A stretch of DNA of 64,000 nucleotides, taken from positions 17,484,001-17,548,000 of the forward strand of contig OZ024755.1 of assembly GCA_964016885.1 (NCBI GenBank). The letters run 5' to 3'. A program made the translations under genes and the position numbers. The notes beneath the pieces are model-generated. The model was not told the DNA's origin and did not search any database. It saw only the letters and a program-made list of their open reading frames with translations. Below are positions 2,029 to 58,380 of this stretch, one piece after another. Position 1 is the first letter of the stretch; each line of letters starts with the position of its first letter. The stretch comes from Eledone cirrhosa (taxonomy: Eukaryota).

Positions 2029-2795
2029 TATATATATACTGTATTTCCAGGCATCGAAGACAGTCCTTTTTTCCTAAAATGTCTCAAAAATCTACCATAC
2101 GTCCTGGAGGCCAAAAGTTGTTTGTTATTTTATTTCAAATTTTTGGTTGTCAAAATTAGGATGTGCCGTCAAGGACGAATCATCTTTGGCATCAGGAAAT
2201 ACGGTAGATACATATATATATATATATATATATATATATATATATATATATGCAAAGGGCAAACAGAAATAACAAAGCAAACAACAGAATTCAATGAAGA
2301 AATATATTATTAGATTTACATGATAGTAGGAAAAGAGTCTTAATGTTTCAGATGCTAGTCCTTCATCAGAAAATAGAATGAGAAATAAAAGAAGAAATAG
2401 AAAGATAGAGGAGACTGGACAGTGGTAGAAATTTTTAAAAAATCTTCTTGAGAAAAACAGGTCTATTCACATTGCCATCTCTTGGAAAAGTGTTGATGCT
2501 GGCATTTTGTGTAAGATGATCCTGTTTTAAAAGGCAGTGATCGAATGTGTCTTGCTGAAAAGGGGAAGAAAAATAATTTTGTATATAGAGCGTGTATATG
2601 TGTGCTTATATATATATATAGAGAGAGAGAAAAAGAGTCAGGACCCCTTTATCTTTTTCTATTTCTCACCCTAAGTATCAAGTACTCTGGTGCATTATGG
2701 TCAACTTGGTTTCTTACCACACTTTCTTTGTGTTTTATAAATATATATATATATAGGAGGAGGTTATAGTTCACTTGAAGCATTGTGTAATGAGG

Positions 2796-3023
2796 TATAA
2801 ACGTTAGAATATGTGTAATAAGGCCAAGACAATGCAGATATGGACATAGAAAAAGAATGCAATAGTGAGAGATATTGATGAGGATTCGTCTTTCACCTTG
2901 AATTTATTTAAATAAATTCAAGGTGAAAGACGAATCCTCATCAATATCTCTCACTATTGCATTCTTTTTCTATGTCCATATCTGCATTGTCTTGGCCTTA
3001 TTACACATATTCTAACGTTTATA
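2796..3023. repeat. Perfect 228-bp spacer-less palindrome
   Basis: Arms 2796-2909 and 2910-3023 are exact reverse complements as read by eye. Abuts (TA)n. Confidence 0.95.
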
Positions 3024-4769
3024 TATATATATATATATATATATATATATATATATATATATATTCTGAAGAGTACCTCTCAAATCAGATGGAAGAGATA
3101 TTTCTAACAGAAATAATAGAAACCTGTCTCTGGAATAGTTTACATATATTAATTATAAAAGAGGTACACAACAATAAAAAAAAAAATTAAATTAGGGATT
3201 ATGATGGTTTTTAAGTGTTGTGGTGGTGGTGATTGCATTGGTAATACTGGTAGTGGCGGTGATTGTGGTTGGGATGATGGTAATGGCGCTGGTGGTGATG
3301 GTGGTGTTGTTGGTCATGATGGTGGTGTTGTTGGTCATGAAGGGTGATTGTGTTTGGAATAACGGTAGCGGTGGCAGAAGCAGCAGCAGTGGTGGTAGTG
3401 ATGTTGATTAAGTTGATGATGACCATTATTGTCACGATGCTGCTAATGGTGATGATGATGATTGTAGTGGTGAGAAGCAACAACAGTAGGAACCATGTTT
3501 TCAAAATATTCCTTTGTTATGTTTATCTAAAAATGGTTGTTAGAGGGAAAAAACGAATTATCTCAGCTTTTTTGTTTGATATTGTGTTTTAAAAAGAAGT
3601 TCAAAAATGGAGAAAAAAGTCTCTTTTTTTAATTTCCTTTTTAGAGAGTTCTTGATTTCCTATATAAAGCTACTAGTGATATATTCTAGGTTTTGACATC
3701 TGAAATTTCCTCTATAACTCCTTTCTAGTTCTTTATTCTATATTTTGGTATCTGGGATTTCTTATATATGTATGTGTGTATTCATATATATATATATATA
3801 TGTGTGTGTGTGTGTGTGTATTAATATACATAAATATGCAAATATATGAATTTATATATATATATATTTATACATATATATATATATTTATACATATATA
3901 TATATATATATTTATACATATATTCATTTATATATATATATATATATATATATATATATATATATATAATCATCATCATCACCGTTTTATGTCCATTCTT
4001 CCACGCTAGCATGGGTTAGATAAATATATATATATAGATATATAGATATATATATATATATATATATATATATATATATATAAATCATCATCATTAAACA
4101 CATACATGTAAATACATACACATATATATATATATATATATAAATACATATATATACATATATACATATATATATAAAAACAAATACATATATATAAATA
4201 TATATATATATACACACATATATACATATATATATATATATATAAATACATATATACATATATATATAAATATATATATATATAAATATATATATATATA
4301 CACATATATACATATATATATATAAATAAATACATATACACATATATATAAATATATATATATATATATATATATATATATATATATATATATATATTCC
4401 AAGACTATAATTTTCTATGTATTTCTTTCTTTTTCCCTTCTTTTCTTTTACACATATATATAAATATATATATATATATATATATATAAACACACACATA
4501 TATACATATATATATAAAAATAAATATATATATATATATATATATATATATATATATATATATATATATTCCAAGACTATAATTTTATATGTATTTCTTT
4601 CTCTTTTTCCCTTCTTTTCTTTTTTTTTTCTTATTGTTTCTCCTAACCATTGTTAACGACCATTACCAGAGTTTCCAGGTAAACATTGCCACAATTTCTG
4701 GGAGATTATTGGAAGAAGTTAATCAAATAATATAGTGCCAGGCTGTTGATAATTTTTGAAATCATCCAT

Positions 4770-5915
4770 CTGAGAGTATATTGATATTTTCAGTAAACTA
4801 AGGGACTGCAAGGAATGGATAAGTTTTCAGTACAATATTGATATTTATAGTAAAACAAGGGAAAGCAAGGAATGGATAATTATTCAGTACAATTTATTGA
4901 TATTTTTAGTAAAACTAGGGACTACAAGTTACCCAGTACAATATATTGATATCATCATCATCATCATCTATAGTAAAACAAGAGGCTGCCAGGAAAGGAT
5001 GTTTTCAGTACAATTTATTGGTATATTTAGTAAAACTAGGGACTACAAGTTACCCAGTACAATATATTGATATCTATAGTAAAACAAGAGGCTGCCAGGA
5101 AAGGATGTTTTCAGTACAATTTATTGGTATATTTAGTAAAACAGGGGACTACAAGGTTTCTTGTACAATATCGTCATCCTCATCATCACCGTTTTACGTC
5201 CATTCTTCCACGCTAACATACGGGAACTGATTTTGCCTCGATTTCTACAGCTGGATGTCCTTCCTAACACCAACCTTATTTACAGTGAGTGATGGGTGCT
5301 TTTTTTTCCATGGCACCTGCACGACCACTTTACAGTGTGGGCTGGGTGCTTTTTTTGCCGTGGCACCTCCATGACCACTTTGCAGTGGGAGGGGGTGGGG
5401 CATATTGTCTATATGCTTCAGCTTCGGCTTGTACCCATGGGAAGTTGGGTCTTCTGTATTACTGCGTGACGCCAAAGGTCACGGTCCTGCATCATCGCCT
5501 TTGAGAGGTGCAATTGGGTAAGGTCGGCTTTTATCAATATATTGATATATTTAGTAAAACAGGGGACTACAAGTTTTCCTGTACAATATATTGATATATT
5601 TAGTAAAACAGGGGACTGCAAGGTACCCAGTACAATATATTGATATATTTAGTAAAACAGGGGATTGCAAGGTACCCAGTACAATATATTGATATATTTA
5701 GTAAAACAGGGGACTGCAAGGTACCCAGTACAATATATTGATATATTTAGTAAAACAGGGGACTGCAAGGTACCCAGTACAATATATTGATATATTTAGT
5801 AAAACAGGGGACTGCAAGGTACCCAGTACAATATATTGATATATTTAGTAAAACAGGGGATTGCAAGGTACCCAGTACAATATATTGATATATTTAGTAA
5901 AACAGGGGACTGCAA
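4770..5915 (+). repeat. 49-bp minisatellite, interrupted by a retroposon at about 5171-5532
   Basis: Unit ccagtacaatatattgatatatttagtaaaacaggggactgcaaggtac, homogeneous at 5533-5915 and diverged at 4770-5170. Confidence 0.9.
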
Positions 5916-55525: not shown

Positions 55526-55761
55526 AAATATATATATATATATATATATATATATATATATATATATATATGTATATATATATATGTATATATATATGTA
55601 TATATATATATGTATATATATATATATGTATATATATATATGAATATGTATATATATGTATATATATATATGAATATATATATATATGTATATATATGTA
55701 TATATATATATGAATATATATATATGTATATATATATATATATATATATGTATATATATAT

Positions 55762-56107
55762 GTAGGCACATGGCTTAGTGGTTAGAGCATTGGTCTTGCA
55801 ATCGACAGGTTGTGAGTTCAATTCTCAGACCGGGTGATGTGTTGTTTCCTTGAGCAAGACACTTTATTTCACATTGCTCCAGTTTACTCAGCTGTAGAAA
55901 TGAGATGATAGGCACTGGGGTCCATATCATTCCACTGCAAAGTGGTCGTGGAGGTGTCACGGCAAAAAAGCACCCAGCACTCACTGTAAATGAGGTTGGT
56001 GTTAGGAAGGGCATCCAGCTGTAGAAATCAAGCCAGAATCAGTTCCCGTCCCACCCTTGCAAGCAGGGAAAAAGCGACGTAAAATGAAATGATGATGATG
56101 ATGATGA
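55762..56107 (+). mobile_element. tRNA-derived SINE (same family as 1674-2028)
   Basis: Near-identical copy inserted in (TA)n. Confidence 0.88.
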
Positions 56108-58135
56108 TATGTATATATATATACATATATATATATATATATATATATATATATATATGTATATATATATATGTATATATATATGTATATATATATATAT
56201 GTGTATATATATATATATATATATATATGTATATATATATGTATGTATATATATATATATATATATATATATATATATATATATATGTATATATATATAT
56301 ATATATATATATGTATATATATATATGTATATATATATATGTATATATATATATATATATGTATATATATATATATATATATATATATATGTATATATAT
56401 ATATATATGTATATATATATATATATATATGTATATATATATATATATATATGTATATATATATATATATATATATATATGTATATATATATATATATAT
56501 ATATATATGTATATATATATATGTATATATATATATATATATATATATGTATATATATATATATATGTATATATATATATATATATATATGTATATATAT
56601 ATATATATATATATGTATATATATATATATATATATATATATGTATATATATATATGTATATATATATATATATATATATATGTATATATATATATATAT
56701 ATATGTATATATATATATGTATATATATATATATATATGTATATATATATATGTATATATATATATATATATGTATATATATATATGTATATATATATAT
56801 ATATATATATATATATATATATATATTATATATGTATATATGTATATATATATATGTATATATATATATGTATATATATATATATGTATATATATATATA
56901 TGTATATATATATATATATATATGTATATATATGTATATATATATATATATATATATATATATATATTATATATGTATATATATATATATATATATATAT
57001 TATATATATATACATATATATATATATATATATACATATATATATATATATACATATATATATATATATATATATATATATACATATATATATATACATA
57101 TATATATATATATATATATATATACATATATATATATATATATATATACATATATATATATATATATATGTATATATATATGTATATATATGTATGTATA
57201 TATATATATATATATATATATATATATATATATATATGTATATATATATATATATATATATATGTATATATATATATGTATATATATATATGTATATATA
57301 TATATATATATGTATATATATATATATATATATATATATATGTATATATATATATATATGTATATATATATATATATATATGTATATATATATATATATA
57401 TATGTATATATATATATATATATATATGTATATATATATATATATATATATATATGTATATATATATATGTATATATATATATATATATATATGTATATA
57501 TATATATATATATATGTATATATATATATATATATATATGTATATATATATATATATATATATGTATATATATATATATATATATATATATGTATATATA
57601 TATATGTATATATATATATATATATATATATGTATATATATATATATATATATGTATATATATATATGTATATATATATATATATATGTATATATATATA
57701 TGTATATATATATATATATATGTATATATATATATGTATATATATATATATATATATATATATATATATATATATTATATATGTATATATGTATATATAT
57801 ATATGTATATATATATATGTATATATATATATATGTATATATATATATGTATATATATATATATGTATATATATATATATATATATGTATATATATGTAT
57901 ATATATATATATATATATATGTATATATATGTATATATATATATATATATATATATATATATATTATATATGTATATATATATATATATATATATATTAT
58001 ATATGTATATATATATATATATGTATATGTATATATATATATATATATATGTATATATATATATATATATGTATATATATATATATATGTATATATATGT
58101 GTATATATATATATATATATATATATATATATATA
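56108..58135. repeat. About 2-kb (TA)n/(TATG) microsatellite array
   Basis: Source of the 660-720 aa poly-IY ORFs. Confidence 0.97.
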
Positions 58136-58380
58136 TTTATCAGAGCTGATGGAAGTCCAACACACACCACATAAATAAATAGATAAATACATATATATAT
58201 ACATATATATATATGTATATATATGTAAATATATATATATATGTATATATATGTATATATATGTATTTATCTATTTATTTATTTATTTATGTGGTGTGTG
58301 TTGGACTTCCATCAGCTCTGACGATGAGTATTTCAGTTGTTGAAACAATGGATCAGGCAGCTCATCAAATTAACATATAT

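Follow-up and report, generated by a model that had tools for sequence, protein, structure and literature searches.

Origin of the foldbacks

How do palindromic elements bearing hammerhead ribozyme motifs come to lie one after another in (TA)n tracts? The question is raised by OZ024755.1:17484001-17548000, a stretch of 64,000 nucleotides (hereafter, the window) from a 3.0-Gb animal assembly, AT-rich and dense in (TA)n. A preliminary description had listed in it at least nine foldbacks, nearly all abutting (TA)n, and eight hammerhead cores, and had ascribed them to many non-autonomous "snap-back" families of Penelope-like elements (PLEs) or retrozymes. Inverted repeats were confirmed at approximately the listed positions for all ten foldback stretches, each bounded at one or both outer ends by (TA)n or a run rich in TA; in the tailed foldbacks, the true end of the element lies 40-110 nt past the visible palindrome. 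The ten foldbacks are not one single system: six come from PLE families, one from a retrozyme-like family designated R, and three from duplicated flanking DNA. Thus, the proposed PLE origin applies to six foldbacks and to the solo copies, the sequence at 58140, 59485 and 63280 not being that of PLEs.

The six foldbacks and the solo hammerhead copies are 5'-truncated ends of seven PLE families (A, B, C, D, X, P1, and P54). With the R foldback added, seven of the ten represent 5'-truncated head-to-head insertions of Penelope-type RNAs in (TA)n, probably made by both ends of the cut target DNA priming synthesis on one RNA at two fixed internal sites.

Two unequal ends of the inverted pairs

Two 3' ends occur in every family but A: the longer carries a tail, and the shorter is located 41-111 nt inside it. 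Below, L denotes the long arm with the tail and S the short arm, and pair types are given as LS, LL, or SS. When queries lacking the tail were used, 54 LS, 3 LL, 1 SS, and 7 ambiguous pairs were found (p = 3e-12; three pairs with TA inside are left out of this tally). The family P1 query held the tail, and the 21 loci tallied with it comprised 15 LS pairs, 1 LL pair, and 5 copies without a partner. Inverted 5'-truncated LS pairs were found in all families but A, in line with the inverted arrangement of pseudo-long terminal repeats (pLTRs) proposed earlier.

The targeting of (TA)n was borne out as well: tailed ends abut it in 28/35 cases in family B, 34/42 in C, 14/22 in D, 30/31 in X, 31/34 in P54, and 19/38 in A, against a background of 12%; ends of family A often lie on (CA)n. 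The corresponding counts for short ends are inflated by a TATA motif of the template itself. A TA-like motif is found in the template behind most ends, where it could play a role in priming or be a nuclease site.

The fold centre varies between copies, and arm lengths lie between about 40 nt and over 2 kb, reaching into the open reading frame (ORF); long inverted pairs with the ORF in both arms occur at loci L101, L107, and L385 (numbers of this kind denote loci). The fold is therefore made anew at each insertion. This bears on the view that the foldbacks are fixed non-autonomous palindromic families, similar to miniature inverted-repeat transposable elements (MITEs) or retrozymes and moving as hairpin units. 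The thousands of short copies per family in first-look counts, the recurrence of some junctions (e.g., in the window at 2755-3023 and at L396), and the non-coding nature of family R speak for it. Nevertheless, the centres vary continuously and the ends are unequal, unlike those of a fixed foldback or MITE with equal terminal inverted ends; the recurrent junctions lie on short palindromes and their subfamily letters differ; decay within pairs is as fast as between copies; and hammerhead pairs on the same strand are rare (12 in 353 family-locus matches, two of them being full pLTR-ORF-pLTR units). This view is, hence, very improbable overall, and for A, B, C, D, X, P1, and P54 it can be regarded as largely refuted.

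At invariant sites, the arms differ by 2.3-7.4% within pairs and by 3.0-8.0% between insertions. Selection or gene conversion acting on the hairpins was considered and rejected, since the arms diverge as fast as separate copies; drifting in this way, the hairpins show no sign of function. The same figures bear on a technical explanation, according to which the palindromes are sequencing or assembly artefacts. Fold-back reads can make perfect palindromes beside (TA)n, and the one at 2796-3023 is perfect; still, the arms of older pairs are 2-7% apart, and random fold-back of reads cannot yield a fixed long/short rule together with family-specific tails, so an artefact is hardly conceivable.

How the second arm is made

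The pairs were compared for how far each arm reaches in the 5' direction. Among 120 LS pairs (a tally that includes query-biased sets), the short arm reached further by at least 10 nt in 52 and the tailed arm in 29; 30 were ties and 9 were capped by the reference. In 15 of the 120, the tailed arm consisted of the tail only. In the tail-only set of family B, which is free of the query bias, the short arm went at least 10 nt further in 10/15 cases and the tailed arm in 0/15 (p = 0.002). Among 15 young P1 pairs, the short arm reached further in five (by 205 to 1179 nt) and the tailed arm in three (by 24-123 nt), and the remaining seven were symmetric ties at short palindromes. The arms of the family X copy in the window do not overlap at all, with the tail alone on one side and the body on the other.

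These counts are to be set against the formation of the second arm by self-priming, in which the first complementary DNA (cDNA) or an antisense RNA of the PLE folds back and is copied, a nuclease cut at the inner TA-like site leaves the tail, and later deletions make the arms unequal. Self-priming has been put forward for head-to-head PLE palindromes (PMC3846280), and nuclease resolution has been invoked for the tail (PMC8557442); the subfamily letters common to both arms, the symmetric P1 junctions, and the TA-like motifs behind both ends all agree with it. At the same time, it predicts a short arm nested within the tailed one. The simple snap-back fits poorly because the short arm often extends further 5' than the tailed arm and thus holds sequence absent from it, the tail-only arms and the young P1 short arms with up to 1179 nt extra being cases in point. 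Accordingly, the "snap-back" part of the preliminary description is disfavoured, and self-priming is regarded as an unlikely alternative.

A further question is whether the two arms were copied from one RNA or from two. At subfamily-diagnostic sites, the arms of one pair differ at 25/268 positions, compared with 39-57% between insertions; therefore, both arms come from one source. Copying from two RNAs, kept in contact through a protein dimer or through the self-complementary stem III of the hammerhead, would make strand displacement unnecessary for overlapping arms; the PLE protein is a predicted dimer (PMC11167929), and a few pairs (L143, L333, and L274) do differ at two linked diagnostic sites. 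Yet the within-pair difference is near the 2-7% expected from background decay, and a two-RNA origin was rejected as a general rule on these grounds, the diagnostic-site comparison being blind to two transcripts of one source element. Such an origin is considered improbable.

The reading preferred here, priming by both target ends on one RNA, can be outlined as follows. The GIY-YIG nuclease would cut both strands within (TA)n. Priming by one target end at the outer site would then yield the tailed arm, and priming by the second end at the inner site would yield the short arm, possibly helped by the TA-like motif behind most start sites in the template. Both cDNAs would halt early and subsequently be joined, in many cases where a short palindrome or microhomology is present. 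Overlapping arms would require strand displacement on undegraded RNA; PLE reverse transcriptases (RTs) are not known to have RNase H. The hammerhead would be a passenger of the pLTR, with its predicted action as a dimer in the full-length transcript, and the stubs would decay neutrally after insertion. In family R, a PLE protein acting in trans would copy circular or multimeric RNA. The priming of both ends, the two start sites, and the joining of the cDNAs are thus what we infer from the anatomy of the insertions. A biochemical parallel is available: a PLE protein studied in vitro (PMC11167929) not only cuts but also extends both strands of the target, and its two internal start sites bound the tail.

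Several points weigh against this reading. In the same in vitro study (PMC11167929), no start-site difference between the strands is reported, nor any homology of the cut DNA with the start site, unlike the short TA-like motifs seen here behind most ends. The loci tallied were top-ranked BLAST hits and not a random sample, which is a weakness. The whole tally of 139 pairs contains 4 LL and 2 SS pairs; an adjacent inverted partner was found in 0/50 loci of family A, so the one-long-one-short rule is not universal; and many copies are solo arms. The symmetric-centre ties (30/120 pairs) are explained equally well by snap-back. Deletion across the palindrome centre after insertion can also give unequal arms, although it is less likely as the cause in P1 pairs that are 99.5% identical. 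Finally, for family R no autonomous partner turned up.

Coding regions and clades of the families

The claim that the families are non-autonomous was not supported. Seven of the eight window families with a full hammerhead run upstream, elsewhere in the genome, into an ORF encoding RT and GIY-YIG nuclease, and the arms of D, A, B, C, X, P54, and P1 have genomic copies linked to PLE ORFs. In the window itself, no match, and hence no remnant of such an ORF, was found by tblastn with 17 PLE proteins from the same genome, as had been stated for the RT. The families comprise about 950 to 2,600 first-look candidates each (candidates, not copy numbers), and the GIY-YIG profile gives 10,597 candidates in the genome. 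Pfam RVT_1 and GIY-YIG matches were obtained in D, P1, and P54, mostly near or below the cut-off; in B, C, and X, RT and GIY-YIG were recognised by motif and tblastn.

Families C and X, by motif, and B, through its likeness to C, are assigned to the Hydra type, and D and A, by motif only, to the Neptune type; both assignments are putative. Family D shows 88-93% identity to sequence below RT + GIY-YIG ORFs at five loci, and its ORF has DKG and a Cx4CxxC linker before the C-terminal nuclease (L099). The ORF upstream of family A is decayed and of the same type, with a decayed linker in L089 and L095. Families C and X occur as pLTR-ORF-pLTR copies of 2.5 and 3.6 kb, respectively; copies of this structure were found at L380 (X), L383 (C), and L435 (P1). 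The CxCx5C linker and CxxC/CxH around E and N, without CCHH, are seen in X (L232, L244, and L380) and C (L382). Family X has DKT in L380 and LWK at the probable RWK position; family C has QWE there, in an ORF copy without the DK region. The ORF of family B is 39-45% identical to that of C, and its link to Hydra goes through that likeness only. The P1 ORF is open and its copies are 99-100% alike, i.e., very young. Matches in the ESM Atlas for the C and P54 proteins were only to unnamed animal RT clusters.

These features agree with the published descriptions of the two clades (PMC8557442). Like Hydra elements, C, X, and B combine a C-terminal nuclease, hammerheads, (TA)n targets, and units of 2.5-3.6 kb; C and X share the CxCx5C linker and CxxC/CxH around E and N, and X also shares DKT. 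The RWK motif, in contrast, reads LWK or QWE here, and the assignment is by motif and not by tree. Few Hydra families are described there outside cnidarians, whereas at least three abundant ones are present here. D and A resemble Neptune elements in the Cx4CxxC linker, C-terminal GIY-YIG, and microsatellite targets (D also in DKG); family A, likewise assigned by motif only, differs in lacking inverted pairs and in its ends often lying on (CA)n.

In the P54 RT, which has a C-terminal GIY-YIG, motifs A and B' are separated by 125 residues (L386:2318-3541 (-), L385, and L268), compared with 55-56 residues in three other PLE RTs here. Such a long A-B' insertion is described in PMC8557442 only for PLEs with an N-terminal nuclease and some nuclease-less ones; P54 has it together with a C-terminal GIY-YIG and a hammerhead.

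Another side observation concerns the 64-nt tails of families C and B (23381-23443 and 23933-24000), which have about 25 nt in common, with a small hairpin, while their arms are unlike. In Hydra-type elements, the common stretch is a candidate signal for protein binding or for the start. An RNA source for family D was absent among the sequencing runs listed, six matching runs being of unspecified kind. In an octopus genome paper (PMC13282606), Penelope-like families are reported as recently active, the main text being silent on hammerheads and palindromes.

Hammerhead motifs

The hammerhead motifs were compared with 100 block-wise dinucleotide shuffles of the window. CUGANGA occurs 36 times versus 23 +/- 5 in the shuffles, and CUGANGA..GAAA occurs 18 times versus 5.8 +/- 2.4; the full minimal type I descriptor gives four matches in the whole window versus 0.1 (maximum 1), so the motifs are more frequent than chance would give. 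The four matches (cores 23815+, 24096+, 45873-, and 55387+) are among the eight sites listed earlier. Three others (2369-, 23509-, and 24067-) are decayed members, with core and helices intact in the majority sequence of the family; the eighth, at 58311-58360, was rejected, as this sequence forms one end of an old dispersed repeat, only 4/18 other copies of which have CTGANGA there (by eye). Further CUGANGA sites, at 3066, 51787, 62209, and 63831, failed the descriptor and were rejected too.

The expression "hammerhead-bearing foldback" is appropriate for three of the ten foldbacks only (23444, 23996, and 55221); the other seven are devoid of the motif. The hammerheads listed at 2336 and 45842 belong to family A, the family found without adjacent inverted partners.

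At the four matching sites, the minimal type I core CUGANGA/GAAA/UH is accompanied by helices I and II and a self-complementary helix III, and the earlier characterisation of the motifs as minimal type I hammerheads that carry an additional base and whose stem III is self-complementary is upheld. Between families, the helices share no sequence, yet pairing is kept. As exceptions, helix II of family C has 2 bp only, and helix III of P54 is an imperfect palindrome. All young P1 copies viewed have CCGAAGA, i.e., C at core position 4 (L388-L400), and about half of the family B copies have CTGAAYGA with an extra base (L320-L349). In unconstrained RNAfold minimum-energy folds, the hammerhead shape is absent for most monomers.

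Hammerhead covariance models, proposed earlier as a check, lent no support: no hammerhead family was present among the 150 of 216 Rfam matches listed for the window, the top matches being microRNA models below their cut-offs. Minimal hammerhead motifs seem to be outside the reach of Rfam models.

The motifs resemble the minimal type I hammerheads described in metazoan PLEs (PMC4209133) in CUGANGA with an unpaired base, the short helix I, the self-complementary helix III, the opposite-strand pairs 100-700 bp apart, and the prevalence of solo copies. The 9-bp helix III of family R, the CCGAAGA of P1, and the CUGAAYGA in part of B, all in predicted ribozymes, set them apart.

Two variants were noted along the way. 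The U3-A8 form of the core, a covariation already described (PMC4209133), was seen by eye at the 3' ends of other PLE families (L096, L097, L101, L104, L105, and L114), and a scan for it gave one weak match in the window, at 39457. A family designated H9 (9842-10024; L105, L156, L157, and L170) retains CUGAUGA together with the first helix II strand and lacks GAAA; it likewise folds and terminates on (TA)n.

Family R as a retrozyme-like unit

Family R has a circularly permuted non-coding unit of 549 nt, with about 2,600 first-look candidates. The longest ATG-started frame in the doubled unit is 28 aa, and PLE protein matches occur in 7/55 loci, none of them continuing the 5' end of the unit. 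In 22/30 loci by pattern, and in 25 by BLAST, the unit's own tail and an invariant 7-nt spacer lie directly upstream of its start; the template was therefore probably circular or multimeric. The hammerhead is of type I, with a stable 9-bp helix III, its CUGANGA core being intact in 25/29 of the copies that match the search pattern, and the unit is strongly folded (z = -4.3). Two hammerheads in a row were found in 1/30 loci (L458). Among 28 loci, there were 17 LS pairs, no LL or SS pairs, 5 ambiguous cases, and 6 solo copies.

Family R is thus likely a retrozyme-like passenger using the PLE machinery. The term "retrozyme", applied earlier to all foldbacks, suits R (32330) and one array outside the window (see below); the other families do not share it, and a non-coding tandem unit was not found for A, B, C, D, X, and P54, all of which lead into ORFs. 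R is similar to the animal non-LTR (non-long-terminal-repeat) retrozymes (PMC7229834; bioRxiv 10.64898/2026.07.22.740005) in being non-coding and strongly folded, with a type I hammerhead and a putatively head-to-tail permuted unit. It differs in its length (549 nt versus 150-450 nt), in its arms of mostly 1 to 1.3 units rather than arrays, and in its insertion as PLE-style inverted pairs in (TA)n. In the preprint, a PLE origin of retrozymes is argued from kinship, the mechanism of mobilisation is called unknown, and the word "tail" is absent from the text. Family R ties a retrozyme-like unit to PLE integration through the anatomy of the insertion, beyond kinship. In the open literature, supplements aside, no paper was found in which a retrozyme-like unit is shown to insert in pairs of the PLE style.

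A segmental repeat was also encountered, in which one family B insertion lies beside an R pair in at least 14 places (C20:3973282-5247372, C27, C16, and C22; L023-L036), recurring every ~110-130 kb on C20. It was entered once or twice in the tallies, not 14 times.

A tandem array derived from family P1

A head-to-head array of 6.7 kb derived from the young P1 family is located at C4:15418948-15425677 (L433 and L434). It contains junctions of a 344-nt unit, of which one strand has 16 and the opposite strand 3, with the short end at one terminus and the tailed end at the other. Variation among its 17 full units is confined to one junction letter (A or T, in irregular order) and three single places. 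The exact A-type junction has no other occurrence in the assembly. The junction lies off the predicted cut site of the hammerhead, the core of which is CCGAAGA. None of the contig pieces listed for the 344-nt junction crosses it, and one loose end has a normal ORF continuation.

This array, which is a single locus, would be explained if both primers had started rolling-circle reverse transcription; circular templates have been proposed (PMC4209133). Amplification at the DNA level or an assembly error may also account for it. More broadly, and only tentatively, since we rate it at somewhat under even chances, every Penelope-type integration may be a two-primer reaction on one RNA, circular hammerhead RNAs being integrated likewise and the P1 array representing one rolling-circle event. 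If true, family R would be a retrozyme caught using the PLE machinery, and the C4 array would be a retrozyme being born from a pLTR.

Relation to known insertion units

Inversion by double priming has a precedent. The 5' inversions of LINE-1 arise by twin priming, in which both target ends prime on one RNA, the second site being variable and the arms abutting. The pairs described here are alike in that both target ends would prime on one RNA, giving an inverted part, and different in that both start sites are fixed and internal and the arms often overlap. No paper linking twin priming to PLE tails was found in the open literature, supplements aside.

An inverted 5'-truncated copy, tailed at one end, has already been described as the insertion unit of PLEs (PMC8557442; PMC3846280); PMC3846280 accounts for it by self-priming and calls the matter open. 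The endonuclease-bearing (EN+) PLEs covered in these papers have in common with the present families the head-to-head arms, the tail on one arm, the palindromic or microhomology junctions, the microsatellite targets, and the ORFs with RT and C-terminal GIY-YIG. The tails are longer here (41-111 nt versus the 30-40 bp described), and the LS rule and the arm reach, which both papers put in words, are counted here. Thus, prior publications cover PLE stubs and inverted pairs, tails and minimal hammerheads, as well as the targeting of (TA)n by Hydra elements, and subscription papers or supplements, e.g., the family lists of PMC8557442, may hold these very families.

The elements of the window are ordinary PLE debris, and their value is in the whole set. 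The genome holds thousands of short pairs of at least eight families, one of which is nearly free of mutations and has an open ORF. PMC3846280 and PMC8557442 treat as open how the inverted repeats and tails of PLEs arise. The end rule, the reach of the arms, and the subfamily letters common to both arms separate the snap-back, one-RNA twin-priming, and two-RNA models and can be counted genome-wide. For annotation, such stubs are liable to be mislabelled as MITEs or microRNA hairpins.

Elements of the window

The window falls within the introns of a spectrin-repeat, nesprin-like host gene, the exons of which lie within 13013-50900 (+), e.g., at 28089-28505 (Pfam PF25034) and 46856-47248; all the elements are intronic. 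The leftmost is a 5'-truncated solo copy of family A, a decayed Neptune-type PLE, at 2249..2596 (-), with the core at 2369 and a broken stem III; there is no foldback. A P1 inverted pair follows at 2755..3023 (tailed arm 2755-2913 (-), short arm 2906-3023 (+)), with 114/114 bases paired and both arms ending just below the hammerhead. A truncated H9 copy, containing only the hammerhead core's first half, is located at 9842..10024 (-).

Four PLE insertions (A, C, X, and B) are lined up end to end at 23179-24163, with a (TA)n or (GA)n tract between each; this cluster is a case of repeated insertion into one microsatellite. It comprises a truncated solo copy of family A at 23179..23302 (+), with the GAAA part of the core deleted; a pair of Hydra-type family C at 23379..23562 (tailed arm 23379-23514 (-), short arm 23518-23562 (+)), with a decayed hammerhead at 23509 in the tailed arm; a pair of Hydra-type family X at 23602..23914, with the tail only at 23602-23644 (-) and a plus-strand arm consisting of the body with an intact hammerhead (core 23815) and terminating at the short end; and a pair of Hydra-type family B at 23933..24163 (tailed arm 23933-24070 (-), short arm 24078-24163 (+)), with one hammerhead per arm (24067- and 24096+). 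The contigs matched to 23360-24330 were mostly other copies, none spanning the locus. The X pair, with no sequence common to its arms, the A copy at 23179, and the half-core family at 9842 had been overlooked earlier.

Further along, the old decayed R pair lies at 32330..32620 (tailed arm 32437-32620 (+)), its arms ending below the hammerhead, and a truncated solo copy of family A with an intact minimal hammerhead (core 45873) at 45749..45909 (-). The short inverted pair at 49310..49408, with part of a tail at the left and no hammerhead, reads like the 3' end of either family X or a near relative; it was assigned by eye against X copies, low-complexity-filtered BLAST giving no match. A P54 pair occupies 54854..55085 (tailed arm 54854-55005 (-), short arm 54990-55085 (+)), its arms ending below the hammerhead, and a pair of Neptune-type family D occupies 55178..55532 (tailed arm 55178-55329 (-), short arm 55357-55532 (+)), the hammerhead (core 55387) being in the short arm.

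The three non-PLE foldbacks are local inverted duplications in the order flank, arm, TA-rich spacer, inverted arm, and (TA)n. The fold at 58140..58321, which lacks a hammerhead, involves the end of an old dispersed repeat with a TA-rich spacer; that at 59485..59548 involves the end of another repeat with a TA spacer; and that at 63280..63531 involves single-copy flank with a TA-rich spacer. Hence, the first two have arms that are copies of the ends of unrelated repeats, and the arm of the third is single-copy. The same fold was present at 0/18 and 0/8 of the other loci of the 58140 and 59485 repeats viewed by eye. In a survey of 1.15 Mb of fetched loci, at least 12 TA-centred folds were found among 255 inverted repeats, a lower bound, as the filter missed 2/3 of the window cases. 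Likely, these folds reflect a break in (TA)n that folded on itself and copied its flank.

The window also harbors a Tc1/mariner-like transposase remnant at 29381-30414 (-), with weak Pfam HTH and Tc3 matches, a remnant of a RT of the long interspersed nuclear element (LINE) type with a cysteine-rich insert at 58370-59417 (+), with weak Pfam RVT_1 and PHD matches, and a 2-kb TA-rich satellite at 56107-58135 with an internal duplication of ~950 nt.

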